Numbered from the stretch's first letter, positions 2,495 to 11,737 are shown. The stretch is 41,705 bases of DNA from a bacterium (GCA_040752695.1 JBFMGO010000041.1:1-41705); one strand, 5' to 3'. Notes: generated by a model not told the origin, from the sequence alone. Made by a program: numbers and translations.

Positions 2495-3729
2495 ACCAAA
2501 AACAAATAGTCCTGGGAGTGGGGGGAAGTATTGCAGCGTATAAATCCGTAGAGATCCTGAGGGCCTTGTGCCGGTTAGGCGCTGTTGTGACCGTGGTGAT
2601 GACCAAAAATGCCCTCGAATTTATTTCTCCGCTTACCTTTCAGACTCTTTCAGGGCAAAAGACCGTCACCACCCTGTTTGATTCAAAAGAAGCGTTCAGG
2701 CCGGAGCATATCGCTCTATCACAAAAAGCCGATTTAGTGCTCGTGGCTCCGGCTACGGCCAACCTGATCGGAAAATTCGCCGGCGGGATCGCTGATGATT
2801 CCCTGACCTCGTTGTTTTTATCGGTACGCTCACCCATCCTGCTGGCCCCGGCCATGAACCCGGCCATGTATGCCAATCCGTTCGTCCAAAGAAACCTTCG
2901 GCTCCTGGAGGAAAGGGAAGTGGGGATCATCGAGCCCGCAGTCGGTGAGGTAGCCTGCGGAGAGGGTGGACAGGGGAGGCTGGCGCCGGTCGAAGACATT
3001 ATCGATCGCGTCGTGCTCAGGCTCGGTGGAAAGAGCCCTTTACGCAAAACGAAAGTCCTCATTTCTGCTGGACCCACCAGGGAGTATCTCGATCCTGTCC
3101 GTTATATCAGCAACGGATCTTCGGGGAAAATGGGATTTGCCCTGGCCAGAGCCGCATACCTCCGGGGGGCACAGGTCACTCTAGTCAGTGGCCCGAATTC
3201 GCTGCCGCGTCCTTGCGCTGGTATCGAATATATTCCGGTTACCAGTACGTTGGAGATGATGCAGGCTCTTGAGCAGCATTTTCCTTCCTCTTCGGTCACG
3301 ATCATGGCTGCTGCGGTGTCTGATTTCAGGCCCGTCCGGAAGGAACATCATAAGATCAAAAAGAGCGGCCTATCATCTCATTCTCTCGAGCTGGAGAAAA
3401 CTCCGGATATTCTCAGGCACCTGGGTCGGATCAAAACCGCACAGCAGATCCTGGTCGGATTTGCAGCAGAAACTGAAAAATTGCTGGCTCACTCTCTCGG
3501 CAAATTAGAGGAGAAAAACCTGGATCTCATATGCGGCAACGATATAACCCAGGAAGGGGCCGGTTTCGATACGGATACCAATATCCTGACTCTCATCGAT
3601 TCACGCAGGGAAGTCGTTCATCTGCCCCTTTTAAGCAAAGAGAAAGCGGCTTTGCGGGTCATCGAAAAAGTCGAGAGCCTGCTCCTGGAAAAAAGTCCTT
3701 CCTCTACACTTGAGCCCGTCGTCCGGTAA
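2488..3729 (+). CDS. coaBC: Bifunctional phosphopantothenoylcysteine decarboxylase/synthase
   Basis: GGSIAAYK, APATAN, APAMN, GPTREYLDPVRYISNGSSGKMG, AAVSDF, GFAAET. Confidence 0.97.
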   Translation: MLDQKQIVLGVGGSIAAYKSVEILRALCRLGAVVTVVMTKNALEFISPLTFQTLSGQKTVTTLFDSKEAFRPEHIALSQKADLVLVAPATANLIGKFAGGIADDSLTSLFLSVRSPILLAPAMNPAMYANPFVQRNLRLLEEREVGIIEPAVGEVACGEGGQGRLAPVEDIIDRVVLRLGGKSPLRKTKVLISAGPTREYLDPVRYISNGSSGKMGFALARAAYLRGAQVTLVSGPNSLPRPCAGIEYIPVTSTLEMMQALEQHFPSSSVTIMAAAVSDFRPVRKEHHKIKKSGLSSHSLELEKTPDILRHLGRIKTAQQILVGFAAETEKLLAHSLGKLEEKNLDLICGNDITQEGAGFDTDTNILTLIDSRREVVHLPLLSKEKAALRVIEKVESLLLEKSPSSTLEPVVR

Positions 3730-4603
3730 TATAGTTTTCCAGCATTTTATTGACTCTTTCGAGCTCGTTCGATTTGGCCTCGGTTTCTTTCAGAAGTTCT
3801 TCGATTTTCCGCTCGGCCAGTTTTCGCTCGGTTATATCCTTGAAGACGACGCCGGTTCCTGTAGTCTCACCCTTGTCATTTTTAATATGGGCGAAGGAAG
3901 CCAACACGAATTTTTTCTTATTATCTTTGGTAGTAATTTCGAATTCCAGGTCTCTTTGTGATTCATTGTCTTTCAGAATCTGCTGGAAGGATTCCTGGCC
4001 TTCGGCAGAGTGGAACAGCCGGTTAAGATCTACACTGGCCAGCTCATCCTTGGAATAGCCGCTGATTTTTGACGAGGCAGGATTTGAAGAGAGAATTTTC
4101 GTTTCAGGATTGAGGATAATAATCCCATCTAAAGAGGTCTCGAACAAATTTCGATACCGCTCCTCAGACTCACGCAACTGGCTCTCGAGTTTGGCTTTTT
4201 CCTCTTCGAAAATCAGTCGCTGGAGGTTTTCCTTAATCACATAGGGAATCCTCTCGACGTAGTTATCCTTCTTGATAACGTAATCAAAAGCCCCTTCTTT
4301 CATAATCTGGACAGCGATATCCTCGCTTCCATGAGCAGTAATGACAATTACCGGCAAATCAGGCTTCATTTTTTTCAAGGATTGTAAAACATGCAAACCA
4401 TCCATTTCCGGCAGAGAGTAATCGAGAAGGATAATGTCAAACTCGTTTTCATTTTTGACCAGGTCAAGGCATTCCTCGCCGGAAGAGACATGGGTAAAGA
4501 AATATTGCATGGTGCTTTTATCCAAAACACGCTTGACCAGCTTGGCCTGAATTAAATCATCTTCTACCAACAGTATGCGGGGATTTTGAATTTGCATGGT
4601 CAT
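3704..4603 (-). CDS. Receiver + PAS protein ending in a coiled coil, with no output domain
   Basis: ILLVEDD...ILLDYSLPEMDG...VITAHG receiver; ESEERYRNLFE...KDITERK PAS; 3' end overlaps coaBC convergently by 26 bp. Confidence 0.88.
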   Translation of the reverse strand: MTMQIQNPRILLVEDDLIQAKLVKRVLDKSTMQYFFTHVSSGEECLDLVKNENEFDIILLDYSLPEMDGLHVLQSLKKMKPDLPVIVITAHGSEDIAVQIMKEGAFDYVIKKDNYVERIPYVIKENLQRLIFEEEKAKLESQLRESEERYRNLFETSLDGIIILNPETKILSSNPASSKISGYSKDELASVDLNRLFHSAEGQESFQQILKDNESQRDLEFEITTKDNKKKFVLASFAHIKNDKGETTGTGVVFKDITERKLAERKIEELLKETEAKSNELERVNKMLENYITGRRAQV

Positions 4604-4609
4604 TCTCCT

Positions 4610-5035
4610 TCAATAAGGTGTCTCGTTAACATTCATCCAATAGTGCTCAATAGAGCGGATCTTTTGGTTAAATTCTTCATAACCCAATGGCTTGGTAATA
4701 TAACTGTTGGCATGGAATTCATAACATTTTTCCAGGTCAGTCCGGTTGCTGGAGGTAGTCAGTATCACGACGGGGATATACTGCAATTTGGGCGATTGCT
4801 TGATCCGTCGCAGAATTTCGAGGCCATTGACTTTCGGCAGATTGATGTCCATGAGGATCAGGTGAGGATAGATGAATTCTTCTTCCGGTGATTTCACCTC
4901 CTGATTGAGGAGATAGTTGAACGCCTCTTCGCCATCTTGGATAATGGTTAACCGATTGTTAAAACCGCTTTTTTTTAAGGCCCTTTCCACCAACTTGATA
5001 TGAACCGGGTCGTCTTCAATCAATAAAATATGCAT
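4610..5035 (-). CDS. Single-domain response regulator (Rcp1-like)
   Basis: ILLIEDD, ILMDINLPKVNGLE, VVILTTS, YEFHANSYITKP, C-terminal HYW typical of Rcp1-type receivers. Confidence 0.92.
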   Translation of the reverse strand: MHILLIEDDPVHIKLVERALKKSGFNNRLTIIQDGEEAFNYLLNQEVKSPEEEFIYPHLILMDINLPKVNGLEILRRIKQSPKLQYIPVVILTTSSNRTDLEKCYEFHANSYITKPLGYEEFNQKIRSIEHYWMNVNETPY

Positions 5036-5050
5036 CGATCTAACCTAACC

Positions 5051-6184
5051 CTAGTGTCCAGGAGAAAATAATGGATTATAATCTTTTACTGGGAGGGAAA
5101 AATAAAAGGTAGATCCCTTTCCCTTGGCAGATTCGACCCACACTTGACCTTTGTGCCCCTCAATGATTCTCTTCACAATAGTTAACCCGACGCCGGTACT
5201 ATTGACATCTTTCACCTCGTTGAGAGTCTGGAAAATTTCAAAGATCTTCTTAAAGTACCTTTCCTCGATACCAATGCCATTGTCCTGAACGGAGAAAATG
5301 TGATAATTATCTTTTATCGTATGATTAATGGCAATAGAAGGATAAGGATTATCATCTCCCATAAATTTGATCGCATTATGTAAAAGATTGACCAGGGCAA
5401 GCACAATCTGCTCTCTATTGCAGTAAACAGTCGGCATATCTTCACCGATGGTCAGTTTGACATTCTTTTCCTTGAGTGAGAGTGTAAGCTGTTCTACTGA
5501 ATCTTGAATGATTCTCTTGGCTGATACGTCTTCGTTTTGATTCTGGGCTTTACTTAAGCGGGAAAGATCCAGAAGATCCCGCACAAGAAGACCCATGCGG
5601 TGGACGCTGTTCTTGATGTCCAGAAGATATTCTTTCCCCTGATCATCCAATTGGCTGTAGCAGTCCTCCATCAGTGCCCCGGCCAGGCCCTGAAGGGAAA
5701 CGAGCGGAGATCGCAAGTCGTGAGATACGGTGTAAACAAAATTTTCCAGTTCATCGTTTTTGATCTTCAGCTCCATGTTGCGGTTTCGCAATTCACTTTC
5801 CAGATTCATCCTTTTGGTAATGTCACGGATTATTCCAATAACGGAGGTACTCTTATCTTCCGGTTTATCCGTTTCACGGCAGGCAGGCACCGCAGTTATC
5901 TCGAGCCAGTGGCCATACTTATCCTTTTTAAGATGTTTAAAAGAAGGTTTTCCGTTTTCGAGGATTTCCTTAATCGGACAATCCTCTTCGCACGGGGAAG
6001 TTCGGCCAAAGAACATTTCAAAGCAGTGCTGGCCCACCTGGTCGCCATACATCTCAATAAGCGGTTGATTGAGGAATTCCACTTTCCGCCGCTTATCTTT
6101 CATAATGATTCCATCACCCATGTTCATCAAGACAGTGCTTAAATGATAATCTTCCAGTTTAATGGTTTTTTTTGGGGGGGTCAC
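5051..6184 (-). CDS. Soluble PAS-domain sensor histidine kinase
   Basis: PAS with CFEMFFGRTSPCEEDCP; H-box SHDLRSPL; N-box NLLHNAIKF; G boxes DNGIGI and GVGLTIV; no TM segment seen. Confidence 0.93.
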   Translation of the reverse strand: MTPPKKTIKLEDYHLSTVLMNMGDGIIMKDKRRKVEFLNQPLIEMYGDQVGQHCFEMFFGRTSPCEEDCPIKEILENGKPSFKHLKKDKYGHWLEITAVPACRETDKPEDKSTSVIGIIRDITKRMNLESELRNRNMELKIKNDELENFVYTVSHDLRSPLVSLQGLAGALMEDCYSQLDDQGKEYLLDIKNSVHRMGLLVRDLLDLSRLSKAQNQNEDVSAKRIIQDSVEQLTLSLKEKNVKLTIGEDMPTVYCNREQIVLALVNLLHNAIKFMGDDNPYPSIAINHTIKDNYHIFSVQDNGIGIEERYFKKIFEIFQTLNEVKDVNSTGVGLTIVKRIIEGHKGQVWVESAKGKGSTFYFSLPVKDYNPLFSPGH

Positions 6185-6380: not shown

Positions 6381-7397
6381 TTATCCACCGAATCGTCGTG
6401 GCTGAGTATAACGATCGATAAAAAGAGCAACGACATTCATATGGAGAATGGCCGTACACATGCCCTCGACACGGGTTCCGTAGTTTCTCACAAAAAAGGT
6501 AAAGATGCCGATTCCAACTCCGTAAATGATTTTCCCATACAGGGTTACCGGACTGGTTACCCAGTCAGTGGCCATAAAAAAGGCTCCCAGGATCAATCCC
6601 CCCGCCAGGATCTGGAAAATAGGATCCTTGCCAAAAGCGATTGATAAAATAGCTGTGGTGATCAGGATGCTGCCTGGAATTTTCAAATCGATGTGCCCTT
6701 TGTACATAAGGTAGGCGGCTCCCAGCAAAAGGGCTAAAGAGGAGCCTCCAATCACGCCGCCAATATTTCCCACAAGCAGGCTCCCGTAACCGGAAAGAGT
6801 GCTGAATACGGGGGATCCTGCGCGGGCGATAGCCAATGGTGTAGCAGCTGTGATTCCATCTATTGCTTTCCCGGAAAAGTCCGTAATAATAACACCGTTC
6901 TCGAAAAATCTGGCTGTGAGAATTTTCGAAAATGAATGAGATTTCCACCAAAGAGGAACGATATATGATTCCACCAGCGGGTGCCAGACCGTAAAGACAA
7001 AAACGAAGGTGCGGGCAAACAGGGCCGGGTTAAAAACATTCTTTCCCAATCCCCCAAAGAGTTCTTTGGCAACAGCAATCGCCACGATCCCTCCCAGGGC
7101 AGCAAGCCACCATGGTGTGGTAGGAGGTAAGGAGAGGGCGAGCAGTAATCCGGTTACAACTGCGCTCCAGTCGTTGAGACTGAAAGGGCGGCCGAGAACG
7201 GCGCGGATAAAGTATTCAGTTCCCATGGTGGATAAGATACAAACACCTGTTACAAAAAGGGCATTCAATCCGAAAAAATAGATCGCGGCCAAAAGGGCCG
7301 GAAAAAGAGCAATGGTCACATCACGCATGGCTGTGGCAACATTGCCAGTAGTTTTGATATGAGGAGGGGTACTGACTGTTAACTGATATTCCGTCAT
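6381..7397 (-). CDS. rnfD: RnfD/RsxD/NqrB family membrane subunit
   Basis: KELFGGLGKNVFNPAL, DGITAATPL (flavinylation Thr region), GAFFMATDWVTSP, PRRFG. Confidence 0.95.
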   Translation of the reverse strand: MTEYQLTVSTPPHIKTTGNVATAMRDVTIALFPALLAAIYFFGLNALFVTGVCILSTMGTEYFIRAVLGRPFSLNDWSAVVTGLLLALSLPPTTPWWLAALGGIVAIAVAKELFGGLGKNVFNPALFARTFVFVFTVWHPLVESYIVPLWWKSHSFSKILTARFFENGVIITDFSGKAIDGITAATPLAIARAGSPVFSTLSGYGSLLVGNIGGVIGGSSLALLLGAAYLMYKGHIDLKIPGSILITTAILSIAFGKDPIFQILAGGLILGAFFMATDWVTSPVTLYGKIIYGVGIGIFTFFVRNYGTRVEGMCTAILHMNVVALFIDRYTQPRRFGG

Positions 7398-7401
7398 TGG
7401 G

Positions 7402-8745
7402 TTAACCTCTCACCATTGCTTTTTTCTTTTGGGCCATAATCTGAGCTTTGGCCTGTCTGATAAATTTGATCATCGGTCTACGGGATGGACATACAAAGGC
7501 GCAGGATCCACATTCCATACAATCCAGCGCACCGCACTCATCGGCATCCCGGTATCGTCCTTTTTCCGAAAAATGGCCAATCATATTTGGAACCAGAAAC
7601 ATGGGACAACTTTCAGCGCATTTCCCGCATTTAAGACAAGGCAGGTATTGATCGGGATCAGGAACCATATTCTGGGGGAATACGACAATCCCGGAGGTTC
7701 CCTTGACAATGGAGGTATCAAGGTTGGAAAGAGCAAACCCCGTCATAGGCCCTCCGATAACGATTTTTCCAGGGAACCCCTCTTTCCATCCGCCGCAAAA
7801 AGAAATTAAATGCTGGATGGGTGTTCCCAGTTTGGCCATGACATTCTGCGGGTTTTTGATCCCTGCGCCGGTCACAGTCAATACTCGCTCGATCAAAGGC
7901 TTGCCGTATTTAATGGCCTCGTAAATAGCCAGGATAGTCCCTACGTTTTGAACGACCGCTCCCACCTCGCTGGGAAGCTTGCGAAGAGGGACCTCCCGGT
8001 TCAAGACCGCTTTGATAAGCTGCTTCTCACACCCTTGCGGATATTTTGTCTGAAGGCCAATTACTCGGATGCTGTTGAGGGCAAGACCGTTTACTGCCTT
8101 CTGGACGGTTTCGATAGCATCAGGTTTATTGCTTTCAATACCGATGTATGCGGTCTTGGCCTCGATGATCTTCATGACTAGATGAACCCCTTTCAGGAAA
8201 TCATCCGTATTTTCCAGCATCACCCGGTGATCGCAGGTCAGGAAGGATTCGCATTCACAGGCATTGATTACCAGGCTGTCAATCGCTTTGTCTTTCGGCG
8301 GAGACAACTTTACGAAGGTTGGGAAGGCAGCCCCTCCCATACCCACGATACCCGCTTCTTTGACGATCGATTTCAGCCTTTCTACGGGCTCTTTTTCCGG
8401 ATTGGCGATTCCCTGAAAGACGATAGATTCCTGCTTCTTATCCGGAATGATGGTAATGCTCGTGATTTCCGCTCCTGTAAAGTGCGGCCGGGGAGCGATA
8501 GATTCAATGACACCAGAAACACTCGCGTGGATAGGCGCAGAAATGAACGCCTCGGATTCGGCGATTTTTTGCCCTGCCTTGACCCGTTGTCCGGCTTCCA
8601 CCAGCGGCTTGCAAGGAACGCCGATGTGTTGGCTTAAAGGAAGAACTATTTTTTCGGGTATGGAGCAGGTGACAATGGCTTTGTGTTCTGTTTCCGACTT
8701 GTGGTGCGGAGGATGAATCCCGCCTTTAAAGGATGGTAGTTGCAT
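7402..8745 (-). CDS. rnfC: RnfC/RsxC NADH-interacting flavin/Fe-S subunit
   Basis: FKGGIHP, GIVGMGGAAFPT, NACECE, GGPMTG, two ferredoxin motifs CLKCGKCAESCP and CMECGSCAFVCP. Confidence 0.96.
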   Translation of the reverse strand: MQLPSFKGGIHPPHHKSETEHKAIVTCSIPEKIVLPLSQHIGVPCKPLVEAGQRVKAGQKIAESEAFISAPIHASVSGVIESIAPRPHFTGAEITSITIIPDKKQESIVFQGIANPEKEPVERLKSIVKEAGIVGMGGAAFPTFVKLSPPKDKAIDSLVINACECESFLTCDHRVMLENTDDFLKGVHLVMKIIEAKTAYIGIESNKPDAIETVQKAVNGLALNSIRVIGLQTKYPQGCEKQLIKAVLNREVPLRKLPSEVGAVVQNVGTILAIYEAIKYGKPLIERVLTVTGAGIKNPQNVMAKLGTPIQHLISFCGGWKEGFPGKIVIGGPMTGFALSNLDTSIVKGTSGIVVFPQNMVPDPDQYLPCLKCGKCAESCPMFLVPNMIGHFSEKGRYRDADECGALDCMECGSCAFVCPSRRPMIKFIRQAKAQIMAQKKKAMVRG

Positions 8746-8818
8746 ATTCTTTTCCCATATCTGATTAAACGTGGAGAAGAGGTTTCTCTTTACATCGTTT
8801 CATGTGCTGCTGCTTTTT

Positions 8819-9574
8819 TTATGAATGTACGGCAGCTTCTTCGACCACTTTCGGCTCTACGTTAAAGAGGATCAATTTAAACAACGGCCACCCTTCCATA
8901 GAGGCTATATAGGCATGGATAGTGGTAAAAATAACGTAGAACCACATGATGCCGGCATGTACTCCCGTAAAAACCTGTTTGGCCAGCTCAAGGGATCCAA
9001 AAGAGGCCGCCAATCCACTTAATAAAAATTCGGGCCAAAGAATCATGAACCCGGTTATACCCTGAACAATGAGCATAATCCAGAAAAGATTATAGGTTAA
9101 TTTCTGCAAAGATGCGTACTTGGCGATATGCGGGTAGTGATCTTCGAGAAATAAATAATACTTGAGGACAGCGGGCGTATTGAGAATGTCTTTTTTGCCA
9201 AAGGAAAAGTCCTGCCAGGTTTTCACCTTTCCATAAAAAGCATACCAGAACCGCACGCCGAAGTTAATGAGGATGATGACCATAAAGCAGTAATGATGGA
9301 TTTTCATCTGGGTATGTTGAGGTTTAAGCCAGTCGAACCGCAAGACGAGCCCTGTAAGGGTGAGGCCCGCAATGGCTATCAGATGGACCCAGTGCATTAA
9401 TCTGGCAGGCACCGAGATATACTCATCTTCCGTTACCGGTCTGAAGTTCCCCTCTACGAATCGATTTTTGAACCGGCCGGTGATTATGTTCCCCATGAAA
9501 TGAAGAATGATGACAATGAGTGATAATGCAAAGATAGCCAAGGCAATACGATCAATGATAGGGTAAGCAATCAT
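8819..9574 (-). CDS. Di-heme cytochrome b membrane protein (HyaC/FdnI-like)
   Basis: RLMHWVH, IHH, YASLQKLTY, VHAGIMWFYVIFTTIHAY His-ligand pattern within hydrophobic helices; ATG at 9574 follows an SD (ORF track starts at 9652). Confidence 0.85.
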   Translation of the reverse strand: MIAYPIIDRIALAIFALSLIVIILHFMGNIITGRFKNRFVEGNFRPVTEDEYISVPARLMHWVHLIAIAGLTLTGLVLRFDWLKPQHTQMKIHHYCFMVIILINFGVRFWYAFYGKVKTWQDFSFGKKDILNTPAVLKYYLFLEDHYPHIAKYASLQKLTYNLFWIMLIVQGITGFMILWPEFLLSGLAASFGSLELAKQVFTGVHAGIMWFYVIFTTIHAYIASMEGWPLFKLILFNVEPKVVEEAAVHS

Positions 9575-9644
9575 TCCTTTCGTTCCTCCCGCGAAAAGTT
9601 TTTGACGCCGGTTTTTATTCCCATAGTTTGCGAGGTCGTTTTTC

Positions 9645-9692
9645 AATACCAAGAGGATTTTCAGTCGCTCGGAATACCAAGAGGATTTTCAG
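9645..9692. repeat. Perfect 20-bp direct repeat (28-bp period) in the leader of cytb-rnfCD
   Basis: AATACCAAGAGGATTTTCAG at 9645-9664 and 9673-9692. Confidence 0.9.
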
Positions 9693-9710
9693 GCATAAAG
9701 AGCTTTGTCT

Positions 9711-9739
9711 TTTATACCATGGTTTTATTTTTCTGTCAA
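9711..9739 (-). promoter_or_regulatory. Sigma70 promoter for cytb-rnfC-rnfD
   Basis: Minus strand TTGACA-17 nt-TATAAA with extended -10 TG. Confidence 0.75.
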
Positions 9740-10357: not shown

Positions 10358-11737
10358 ATGTGGAAGCAAGGAGAAAAATGGGTAGTTGTCTTGAGCCTTG
10401 GAATTGTTCTTTCGCTTTTTTGGGTAATTGGTATTCGAAATACAGCACAAGCCAAATGGATCGATTGGGTATCTTTAGGCGGAGAAATGCAAGGCGATCC
10501 AGTGGCAATTTCTTTGTGGGAAAATCATGTTACTGTTTTCGCAGTAGGTATGGATAACGCTTTGTGGTGTAAAACATGGATGAATGATGCCTGGACCGAT
10601 TCGGAATCTCTCGGGGGTCAGATTGCTGGAACACCAGCCGTTGTTTCCTGGGGTCAGAATCATTGCTCTGTATTTGCAAGGGGTATCGATGGTGCCTTGT
10701 GGGTTAAGACAATACTTGATGGATCCTGGCGCGATTGGGTATCTTTAGGCGGAGAAATGCAAGGCGATCCAGTGGCAATTTCATTGTGGGAAAATCATAT
10801 TTCGGTATGCGCACGGGCTATGGATAATTCCTTGTGGTGCAGGGTATGGCAAAATGATGTTTTGTCCAATTGGGAACCTTTAGGGGGCAAAATTCTAGGA
10901 TCTCCATCTGCTATTTCTTTGTGGGAAAATCATATTACGGTATTCGCACGGGCTGTGGATAATGCCTTGTGGTGCAGGACGTGGCTTAATGATGTTTTGT
11001 CGGACTGGGAACCTCTGGGGGGTGAAATTCAAGGAACTCCAAGAGTTGTTTCTTGGGGACCGGATCATGCTTCTGTAGTGGCAAGAGGTATGGATAATGC
11101 TGTGTGGATTAAGACTTGGGTCGCAGATGTTCCGTGTTTACAGGATGATTCAGGTAACCTGGATATCGAAGAACATGAGGGAAGGATAGGTGATGAAATT
11201 GTGATTCCGGTAAGGATTCAAAGCGCCCCTGATAATGTGGCTACTCTTGGCTTTGAAGTTACCTATGATGCAAATGTTCTTGAATATATAGATTTTTACT
11301 TTGAGGAAAATAATCTGGCAACATCTTTGCAGTTTTTTGATGTTAATAAAATTGGTGATTCCGCCCGACTGATTATTGGAGGGTATACTGATGAAGCAGG
11401 TATTATAAAAGATGAAAGTGGCATTTTGGTAAACCTGAGGTTTAGAGTGATAGGTGGTGAGAAAGGCTGCTGTTATCCCTTGCAATTGGAAAATTTAAAA
11501 GATAACATAGCTCGTTTCACAAAAACAGACGGATCATTTACCATAATAGAGTGTAATGGAGACATGAATGAGGATGGTGCTATTACACCGGAGGATGCCC
11601 GGATAGTTTTCGAATGCTATCTTCAAAAAGGACCTTATACGGATTGTTGCGATGTAAACAGAGATGGAGAAGTCACGCCGGCCGATGCTCTTTGTGTTTT
11701 TCAAAAGTATTTAGGTAAGGATTCCTGTTTGGACTAG
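10358..11737 (+). CDS. Secreted protein: five 45-aa PLL/fucose-lectin-like beta-propeller repeats + cohesin + dockerin
   Basis: Signal peptide ending AQA; repeats of W-x-x-LGG...P...FARGxDNALW; cohesin-like GDEIVIPVRI...GFEVTYDANVLEY; paired Ca-loops GDMNEDGAITPED and DVNRDGEVTPAD. Confidence 0.85.
   Translation: MWKQGEKWVVVLSLGIVLSLFWVIGIRNTAQAKWIDWVSLGGEMQGDPVAISLWENHVTVFAVGMDNALWCKTWMNDAWTDSESLGGQIAGTPAVVSWGQNHCSVFARGIDGALWVKTILDGSWRDWVSLGGEMQGDPVAISLWENHISVCARAMDNSLWCRVWQNDVLSNWEPLGGKILGSPSAISLWENHITVFARAVDNALWCRTWLNDVLSDWEPLGGEIQGTPRVVSWGPDHASVVARGMDNAVWIKTWVADVPCLQDDSGNLDIEEHEGRIGDEIVIPVRIQSAPDNVATLGFEVTYDANVLEYIDFYFEENNLATSLQFFDVNKIGDSARLIIGGYTDEAGIIKDESGILVNLRFRVIGGEKGCCYPLQLENLKDNIARFTKTDGSFTIIECNGDMNEDGAITPEDARIVFECYLQKGPYTDCCDVNRDGEVTPADALCVFQKYLGKDSCLD
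10462..10798 (+). repeat. Intragenic repeat: 67-bp near-identical copies 270 bp apart
   Basis: 10462-10528 vs 10732-10798 differ at one position; part of a 135-bp period repeat array. Confidence 0.9.

Follow-up and report, generated by a model that had tools for sequence, protein, structure and literature searches.

A conserved cytochrome b-rnfC-rnfD unit in a small candidate bacterial phylum and its reading as a possible NADH:menaquinone oxidoreductase

The DNA analysed here, called the window, is the whole of contig C41 of a bacterial assembly (GCA_040752695.1 JBFMGO010000041.1) and is 41,705 nucleotides in length. Coordinates given without a contig or locus name refer to it (locus label WIN, genome G000). 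The window contains three adjacent genes encoding a di-haem cytochrome b, RnfC and RnfD, referred to below as the trio. The trio recurs in related genomes as a unit and may encode an NADH:menaquinone oxidoreductase. The three genes, and the kinase and receiver genes downstream of them, are all on the minus strand. The trio and its promoter-like site are as follows.

9711-9739, minus strand: promoter-like site, TTGACA-17 nt-TATAAA, located 5' of the cytochrome b gene by direct reading
8819-9574, minus strand: di-haem cytochrome b gene, 251 amino acids, five transmembrane segments, PF01292 match
7402-8745, minus strand: rnfC, TIGR01945 match
6381-7397, minus strand: rnfD, PF03116 and TIGR01946 matches, beginning 4 bases after rnfC

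An earlier reading of the window, hereafter the original prediction, gave the order as promoter, cytochrome b, rnfC, rnfD and kinase. This order was borne out by family matches and by direct reading of the sequence. The promoter that it claimed corresponds to the promoter-like site at 9739-9711, and four distinct sequences (five rows, two from one genome) retain its -35 box and a -10 region of the form TGnTA..A. A consensus promoter scan did not list the site because the scan requires a T in the final position. The scan total was 18 against 13.2 +/- 4.3 expected, which is not above chance.

The cytochrome b open reading frame (ORF) spans 8819-9652, extending up to a TTG at 9652. Seventeen of 18 homologues begin near Met27 of this long ORF, and a ribosome-site-like sequence of the GGAGG type (GGGAGGA/AAAGGA) lies just 5' of the ATG at 9574. 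For these two reasons ATG 9574 is the likeliest start, and the gene is taken as 8819-9574. The protein matches the Pfam family Ni_hydr_CYTB (PF01292) with 68.7 bits against a cut-off of 30.1, and falls below the HyaC/FdnI equivalog cut-offs TIGR02125 and TIGR01583 (60.7 vs 121.5 bits). Histidines 61, 94, 206 and 220 do not vary across 21 sequences and align with the ligand histidines of Escherichia coli HyaC (4gd3_A). Core helices 1 and 2 carry one histidine each, while His206 and His220 are on the last helix, 14 residues apart. The spacing is of the FdnI type, and we take the four to be the haem ligands.

The cytochrome has five hydrophobic segments, that is, an extra N-terminal helix added to a four-helix core. 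An AlphaFold2 (AF2) model has a pLDDT of 84.8, and its best Foldseek matches are 4gd3_A and 1kqf_C with probabilities of 0.99-1.0, but with E values of 0.05-0.24 and TM values of 0.4-0.55. In FdnI and HyaC, one haem is located near each membrane face. By this layout and the positive-inside pattern, the trio cytochrome probably also has one haem close to each face. A second type of trio (L025:10249-11052 and L042:1700-2503) encodes the extra N-terminal helix as a separate ORF of about 48 amino acids, placed before a 195-amino-acid four-helix core. The separate ORF carries a conserved histidine and a GRFxxRF motif, and the split is identical in the two genomes. No fused form of the cytochrome was found among relatives of 483-2000 amino acids, which is weak evidence.

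Beside the trio cytochrome b there are no catalytic genes of a hydrogenase or formate dehydrogenase. The NiFe hydrogenase operon of this genome is on contig C44 and has two cytochromes b of its own, which are 23% identical to the trio protein. A stray hydrogenase cytochrome was ruled out as an explanation on this ground.

RnfC scores 525.5 bits against TIGR01945 (cut-off 246) and also matches Complex1_51K, RnfC_N and SLBB. The NADH and flavin mononucleotide (FMN) motif GMGGAAFP is at residues 135-142 (8320-8343), and two CxxCxxCxxxCP motifs for [4Fe-4S] clusters are at residues 370-381 (7603-7638) and 409-420 (7486-7521), as the original prediction had said. The protein is 47% and 41% identical to the two other RnfC copies of the genome and retains a C-terminal helix resembling that of the canonical copies.

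RnfD is 338 amino acids long and scores 315.5 bits against PF03116, its sole domain, and 271 bits against TIGR01946 (cut-off 207). The "TAAT" region that had been reported reads DGITAAT at residues 180-186 (6840-6860), and we take it to be an ApbE-type flavinylation motif. Its last threonine (T186) aligns with the FMN-bearing threonine region of solved RnfD. All 13 cytochrome-linked RnfD sequences have the motif D[GA]x[ST]xAT, and T186 is invariant among them. Residues N123 and D278, which correspond to the riboflavin ligands N123 and D249 of Acetobacterium woodii, are invariant in the same 13. A clade-specific insertion of about 22-30 residues lies immediately before the FMN site and has the invariant residues P148, W150 and W151; in the window it contains PLWWK (6942-6956). 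None of the solved RnfD chains (9eri_D, 7zc6_D and 8ahx_D) has an equivalent of the insertion. It is at this place that, in Clostridium tetanomorphum Rnf, RnfG docks and its flavin lies within 5 A of the RnfD flavin (PMC9588780; this and the later citations draw on excerpts of the sources).

The conservation of the trio was surveyed with one genome per species and the cytochrome b alone as query, which gave 13 loci. Ten of these have cytochrome b, rnfC and rnfD in order (nine are complete, and in L013 the contig stops 41 residues into rnfD). Cytochrome b and rnfC are together in 11 of the 13; the added locus is L021 of genome G010, whose rnfD, also of the trio type, lies at a separate locus (L029). 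The two remaining loci, from Actinomycetota, have the cytochrome only, between tatC and a gene for a hydrogenase maturation protease. Three additional trios are second copies in G005 (L025) and G008 (L042) and one metagenome contig (L060). The synteny that the original prediction proposed to survey recurs, and the recurrence of the arrangement across loci is far in excess of chance. The genes overlap in some relatives, for example L017 and L021. In one trio, a DUF433/PIN-like (DUF5615) pair, probably a toxin-antitoxin system, is inserted between rnfC and rnfD (L022:7801-8479).

Metagenomes were scanned with RnfD-alignment patterns shared with ordinary RnfD, and 80 loci were kept. Of these, L060 is the only trio; the remaining 79 loci are canonical or truncated. 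Two trivial origins were ruled out. The presence of both flanks and the conservation of the arrangement speak against a contig-end or assembly artefact. Intact reading frames, conserved motifs and a clade old enough for divergence to about 50% identity speak against a pseudogene left over from the decay of an rnf operon.

Trees, which had been proposed as a check, were constructed from 28 rows of RnfD (rows below 300 amino acids omitted) and 27 rows of RnfC (rows below 400 amino acids omitted). The cytochrome-linked copies form clades of their own. All 13 RnfD copies form one clade (100/100) and all 13 RnfC copies form one clade (95/97), each separate from the copies linked to rnfG, rnfE, rnfA and rnfB. 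The unlinked rnfD of G010 falls inside the cytochrome-linked RnfD clade. The cytochrome b tree has the same subclades as those of RnfC and RnfD. Two complete trios are present in G005 and in G008, and G023 has a second cytochrome b gene. From the matching subclades and the double trios it follows that the three genes diverged together and that the set was duplicated at least once. These sequence comparisons support the trio as a conserved, co-evolving unit and not a fragment of a canonical operon.

Two further placements were observed in the trees. A four-helix Actinomycetota cytochrome b located beside tatC and hycI (L023/L024) nests inside the trio cytochrome clade (90/91, on a long branch), and in the RnfC tree the canonical copy from that genome (L040) branches as the sister of the trio clade (93/80). 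These positions hint at gene exchange between the two phyla. Separately, RnfC-like proteins in G003 (L027:3856-5193) and G002 (L028:6061-7401) have the GxGGAxFP NADH/FMN motif deleted and, with their own RnfD, form a clade on a long branch. Around L028 lie rnfG, E, A and B, in an unusual order. The two may represent a form of Rnf that works without NADH.

The genes for the remaining Rnf subunits were sought on the window and in the rest of the assembly, which is 6.05 Mb and 96.6% complete. A genome search with PF02508 (RnfA/E) gave matches on contigs C4 and C136 only, and one with FMN_bind (RnfG) gave matches on C4, C136 and C19 only, with none on the window contig in either case. A tblastn search with the RnfG, E, A and B proteins of the genome also gave nothing on C41, including no RnfB-like match, and FMN_bind gave no match in the related trio loci. 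The lack of rnfG, E, A and B near the trio therefore stands for the 41.7-kb contig. For the genome as a whole the same claim would be wrong, since the assembly has three rnfCD pairs and two rnfGEA sets. Contig C4 holds a complete rnfCDGEAB. C109 (12722-15500) holds rseC-rnfC-rnfD followed by an unrelated dikinase-like gene, and C136 (1283-3501) holds rnfG-rnfE-rnfA with a small ferredoxin gene in place of rnfB, not at the contig start (the two loci are L009 and L010). The C109 and C136 sets appear, from their gene content, to be a second Rnf divided between two loci. An orphan rnfCD resembling the C109 pair is also present in G002 (L036). The genome also contains ApbE, as the original prediction had proposed to check, and menaquinone-synthesis genes, among them MqnA/D.

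In the other genomes, the RnfA/E pairs are accounted for by canonical operons. Every RnfA/E pair in G001, G004, G005, G007, G009 and G010 adjoins its own canonical rnfCD, and the pair in G011, located where a contig begins, is probably a continuation of the canonical contig. No spare rnfGEA set was found in these seven genomes. In the window's genus, the two other species (96% and 97% complete) each combine the trio with a single RnfA/E pair, and G005 has two trios and one RnfA/E pair. In G022 (88% complete) and G020 (63% complete), which carry both the trio and ApbE, neither RnfA/E nor FMN_bind gave a match. Given the completeness values, the chance of RnfA/E being jointly missed from both is about 4%, assuming independence. 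The absence is suggestive, short of proof, of a trio that stands alone.

The phylum is a small candidate phylum with 20 species genomes in the collection. The cytochrome is present in 13 of the 20, comprising six of six in family f1 (this genome included), five of six in f2, one of one in f3, one of one in f4, and none of six in f5-f8. A NuoH match, the marker used here for complex I, was found in 12 of the 20. All eight NuoH-less genomes bear the trio (completeness 95, 91, 76, 93, 63, 97, 88 and 87%), and all seven trio-less genomes match NuoH, the match in G024 being a fragment of 54 positions only. The distribution of the trio thus complements that of complex I and fits a complex I substitute, short of proof. 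Genomes G014, G019 and G021 have a single RnfA/E pair, which belongs to a canonical Rnf operon that includes RnfB (in G021 a contig end truncates the flank), and therefore have no NQR. MenA scored above its cut-off in two genomes, G005 and G008, and G006 has a MenA fragment.

Outside the phylum, the trio is rare. A cytochrome profile run against 1.84 billion representative proteins gave 36 matches at E <= 1e-30. Among the 35 that were compared with the loci, P0022 alone matches a trio locus best and closely, and P0041 matches one weakly (38%). P0005, found with the window's cytochrome, is of the trio type, and the other profile matches are closest to Actinomycetota-type loci. Relatives occur in 53 of 401 Actinomycetota genomes sampled. 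Neither rnfC nor rnfD was found within 1.5 kb of the relative in any of 30 loci fetched, and all ten downstream neighbours tested are multihaem cytochromes c. The original prediction had held that HyaC/FdnI-type cytochromes b normally sit with hydrogenase or formate dehydrogenase genes. Such genes are indeed absent here, but the nearest relatives mostly partner multihaem cytochromes c. In small-genome Actinomycetota (L140-L169), a five-helix HyaC-like cytochrome b gene is followed by one or two multihaem cytochrome c genes, an arrangement that looks like a split CbcL-type quinol:cytochrome c module. In the CbcL/Mco pattern, quinol-linked cytochromes b exchange electrons with a partner at the outer face (PMC6295460, PMC9012536).

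The reading put forward here is that the trio is a stand-alone NADH:menaquinone oxidoreductase working without RnfG, E, A and B, and we give it an even chance of being correct. The cofactor motifs, synteny, separate clades, co-duplication, NuoH pattern and menaquinone genes are counted as support. So are the lack of a spare rnfGEA set in the seven genomes named above and in the other species of the genus, the lack of RnfA/E and FMN_bind matches in G022 and G020, the RnfD insertion at the FMN site where RnfG docks and the CbcL/Mco-type partners of the nearest cytochrome relatives. The passage of electrons from NADH to menaquinone is downhill by about 250 mV by textbook midpoint potentials, and that from menaquinol to NAD+ is equally uphill. 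A menaquinol:NAD+ reverse transfer without energy input was rejected for this reason, and the reverse electron transfer suggested by the original prediction is doubtful, no energy input being visible.

In solved Rnf complexes the chain runs FMN(RnfG)-FMN(RnfD)-riboflavin(RnfD)-two [4Fe-4S](RnfC)-FMN(RnfC)-NAD+ (PMC9588780, PMC11889175). In the proposed trio complex, NADH would be oxidised at the RnfC FMN, and the two [4Fe-4S] clusters of RnfC would hand the electrons to RnfD. The RnfD wire would then carry them from the cytoplasmic-side riboflavin to the covalent FMN near the outer face. From here on, the HyaC/FdnI-type cytochrome b would replace the RnfG, RnfAE and RnfB leg. Its outer-face partner would be the RnfD flavin, with the outer haem accepting the electrons and the inner haem passing them to menaquinone. 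The path would cross the membrane twice, like those of Rnf and NQR. We infer the assembly of the three proteins, the contact between FMN and haem, the quinone acceptor, the direction of flow and the lack of pumping.

Several points weigh against this NADH:menaquinone reading. Five genomes, this one included, have both the trio and NuoH, and the NuoH pattern comes from genomes that are related and may go back to only two or three losses. NDH-2 (PF22366) was matched in none of five genomes, but the model matched only three of 14 control genomes. A non-pumping route that crosses the membrane twice would duplicate the single-subunit NDH-2, which leaves the advantage of a three-subunit machine unexplained, and the quinone site of the proposed complex was not located. 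The AF2 model of RnfD is poor (mean pLDDT 62.5, insertion < 50). At least one RnfA/E pair is present in 11 of the 13 trio genomes, the two lacking it are only 88% and 63% complete, and sharing of RnfG, E, A and B in trans is possible. This genome also has the orphan rnfGEA-ferredoxin set on C136.

In the first rival explanation, the cytochrome-linked RnfC and RnfD are alternative subunits that assemble with RnfG, E, A and B supplied by the canonical operon or, in this genome, by the orphan rnfGEA-ferredoxin set, and the cytochrome b is an added quinone branch. The RnfA/E pairs, the C136 set and the canonical-like C-terminal helix of the trio RnfC all speak for it, as do loci of anaerobic methanotrophic archaea (ANME-2a/2b/3) that join rnfCDGEAB to a cytochrome b (PMC12180501, PMC9012536). 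The orphan set is found only in this genome among those examined, however, and its likelier partner is the rseC-rnfCD of C109. The other species of the same genus keep the trio without a spare rnfGEA set, G022 and G020 have no RnfA/E/G match (though both are incomplete), and the trio was duplicated in G005 without duplication of its single RnfA/E pair. The RnfD insertion also sits at the FMN site that faces RnfG. We consider the alternative-subunit explanation unlikely.

The same evidence bears on the way in which the original prediction said it might fail, namely that an orphan rnfGEAB cluster elsewhere completes a canonical complex and that the cytochrome linkage is not conserved. An orphan rnfGEA set does exist. 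The linkage is conserved, and the set has another candidate partner in the C109 rnfCD. The original prediction is retained on this point because the linkage is conserved, the orphan set is unique to this genome among those examined and the C109 pair is available.

A second rival, to which we give slightly less weight, is that the trio is an electron outlet. RnfC and RnfD would supply electrons from NADH, and the cytochrome b would supply electrons from menaquinol, to an outer-face acceptor encoded elsewhere, such as a multihaem cytochrome. The multihaem cytochromes c that follow the nearest cytochrome b relatives (ten of ten tested) fit this rival. Minimal Nqr/Rnf-like complexes have been proposed to export NAD(P)H electrons (PMC10979944), and a proposed FdhAH-RnfCD complex links NADH to an outer-face enzyme (bioRxiv 10.1101/2025.07.15.664484). 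Set against this, no conserved gene for a cytochrome c or periplasmic redox protein lies beside the trio and no acceptor was found, and the complementarity with NuoH better suits quinone reduction.

The third rival is an ion-coupled trio. Na+ or H+ would pass through RnfD, either conserving energy as NADH reduces quinone or letting a gradient drive electrons from menaquinol to NAD+. A Na+ path in RnfD has been proposed for C. tetanomorphum (PMC9588780), and the equivalents of two of its residues, N124 and D248, are invariant in trio RnfD. The equivalent of Asn90 is Ser89 in the window and S, T or C across the trio. The equivalent of Glu185 (RnfD residue ~215, window ~6750-6760) is deleted in WIN, L012, L014 and L015; in this subgroup the region reads GGVIG-GSS instead of GxxGE[TVI]S, and the glutamate is present in the other nine trio sequences and all canonical RnfD. 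Later work on the A. woodii structure places Na+ pumping in RnfA/E, with RnfD purely an electron wire and, in the excerpt drawn on, no Na+ path in RnfD (PMC11889175). In Rnf and NQR, Na+ export would go with flow from the outer FMN to riboflavin, opposite to that from NADH to quinone (from PMC9588780), and a reverse transfer would face the uphill step of about 250 mV given above. Since RnfA/E are absent and Na+-site residues are altered in RnfD, ion pumping is unlikely, and the trio is probably not an ion pump. The ion coupling suggested in the original prediction is accordingly doubtful, pumping having been placed in subunits that the trio lacks, and we rate the ion-coupled rival as improbable.

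The regulatory genes that follow the trio, together with repeats upstream of it, are listed below.

5051-6184, minus strand: PAS-HisKA-HATPase histidine kinase, soluble, after a 196-base gap from rnfD
4610-5035, minus strand: single-domain response regulator (REC), domain match
3704-4603, minus strand: REC-PAS response regulator without a DNA-binding domain, domain match
9645-9664 and 9673-9692, minus strand: two exact 20-nt direct repeats with a spacing of 28, in the leader that separates the promoter-like site from the cytochrome b start

Kinase and receiver genes follow rnfD in ten of the ten type-1 loci with downstream DNA (WIN, L012, L014-L020, L060). In the rearranged locus L021, the kinase and REC-PAS genes are directly upstream of cytochrome b and rnfC. 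Type-2 trios (L025, L042) have no kinase or receiver genes. The PAS domain of the kinase has three cysteines (C-x10/11-C-x2/3-C) that are conserved in all eight trio-linked kinases aligned (L060 not included), a motif that may form a metal or Fe-S redox sensor. Neither receiver protein has a DNA-binding output. The kinase and receivers are read as a candidate redox-responsive regulator of the trio. The linkage to the kinase, the conserved cysteines and the receivers without DNA-binding output would also suit a trio that is mainly a redox sensor reporting the NADH/quinone state to these proteins, but this is very improbable, as type-2 trios have no kinase, a complete cofactor chain from NADH to haem would be costly for sensing, and the linkage is explained equally well by a kinase controlling the operon.

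The 20-nt direct repeats may be a regulator-binding site, and their sequence has no clear conservation in relatives. The immediate neighbours of the cytochrome b gene are rnfC on one side and, on the other, a divergent gene (10358-11737, plus strand) for a 459-amino-acid, secreted-looking protein with DUF346 repeats and cohesin and dockerin domains.

Taken as a whole, the original prediction is partly supported. The trio stands as a conserved unit and the three-subunit oxidoreductase as a likely reading of it; a genome-wide absence of rnfGEAB is wrong for this genome, and the suggested ion coupling and reverse transfer are doubtful. Rnf and NQR are usually viewed as fixed six-subunit machines, and a three-subunit derivative, if true, would show RnfCD to be an independent module. 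If true, it would also be a clean natural test in the dispute over RnfD/NqrB or RnfA/E as the ion mover, with a pumping trio contradicting the RnfA/E-only model. The NADH:menaquinone reading would further provide a possible new route from NADH to menaquinone in this phylum, and would supply that step in its genomes with menaquinone genes and without a complex I match. It would tie a cytochrome b subfamily associated with multihaem cytochromes to a flavin partner.

A comparison with known systems shows both likeness and difference. The trio RnfC and RnfD are over the NCBIfam subfamily cut-offs and retain the cofactor sites of canonical Rnf (9eri of A. woodii, 7zc6 of C. tetanomorphum and 8ahx of Azotobacter vinelandii). 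The trio differs from canonical Rnf in having no RnfG, E, A or B, in the separate RnfC and RnfD clades, in the RnfD insertion, and in having the cytochrome b for the ferredoxin leg. The likeness to Na+-NQR is in the proposed passage from NADH to quinone on an RnfD/NqrB flavin wire and in the U-shaped electron path. The NqrA and NqrB models score only 65.9 bits against a cut-off of 450 and 136 bits against a cut-off of 350, and there is no NqrC-F on the contig. In the trio, NADH would enter via RnfC at the riboflavin side, and RnfD would be crossed in the opposite direction.

The cytochromes b of hydrogenase-1 and formate dehydrogenase-N (HyaC and FdnI; 4gd3 and 1kqf) share with the trio cytochrome the Pfam family and the four histidines and are, at the modest scores given above, its top fold matches. 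The trio cytochrome differs from them in its scores under the equivalog cut-offs, its extra N-terminal helix and the lack of adjoining hydrogenase or formate dehydrogenase genes. The CbcL/Mco modules combine a HydC/FdnI- or VhtC-like cytochrome b with a multihaem cytochrome c, and theirs is the arrangement of the nearest Actinomycetota relatives. The trio has no multihaem cytochrome c fused or adjacent to it, and none of the 30 relatives is near rnfC or rnfD.

A full-text literature search, in which subscription journals and supplements were outside the scope, found no published cytochrome b-rnfC-rnfD unit. The nearest systems in print are the following three, none of which has the trio arrangement. 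The Rnf clusters of ANME-2a/2b/3 have an attached b-type cytochrome thought to connect Rnf with a quinone-like membrane carrier or with cytochromes (PMC12180501, PMC9012536), but they keep the full rnfCDGEAB and a multihaem cytochrome c, and the trio keeps C and D only. The two-subunit Nqr/Rnf-like complexes (Meheust 2021; Huang 2024) are reduced Rnf/NQR derivatives with an RnfD-like subunit fed by NAD(P)H; as described, this subunit carries a fused PF00175 NAD-binding domain, no longer has the flavinylation site and works with an RnfG-like protein (PMC10979944). The trio has a separate RnfC, a retained flavinylation site, a cytochrome b partner and no FMN_bind neighbour. FdhAH-RnfCD of a Natronincolaceae bacterium uses RnfCD as a portable NADH link to a non-Rnf partner, as the trio would; compared by its partial description only, the partner there is a formate dehydrogenase and not a cytochrome b (bioRxiv 10.1101/2025.07.15.664484). 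Beside complex I, NDH-2 and Na+-NQR, the trio can tentatively be placed as a fourth architectural class, somewhat short of even probability, in which RnfCD would be a module joined to different outer-face partners, namely RnfG/AE/B, formate dehydrogenase or cytochrome b, and the trio would provide NADH entry in those lineages of the phylum where complex I was lost.

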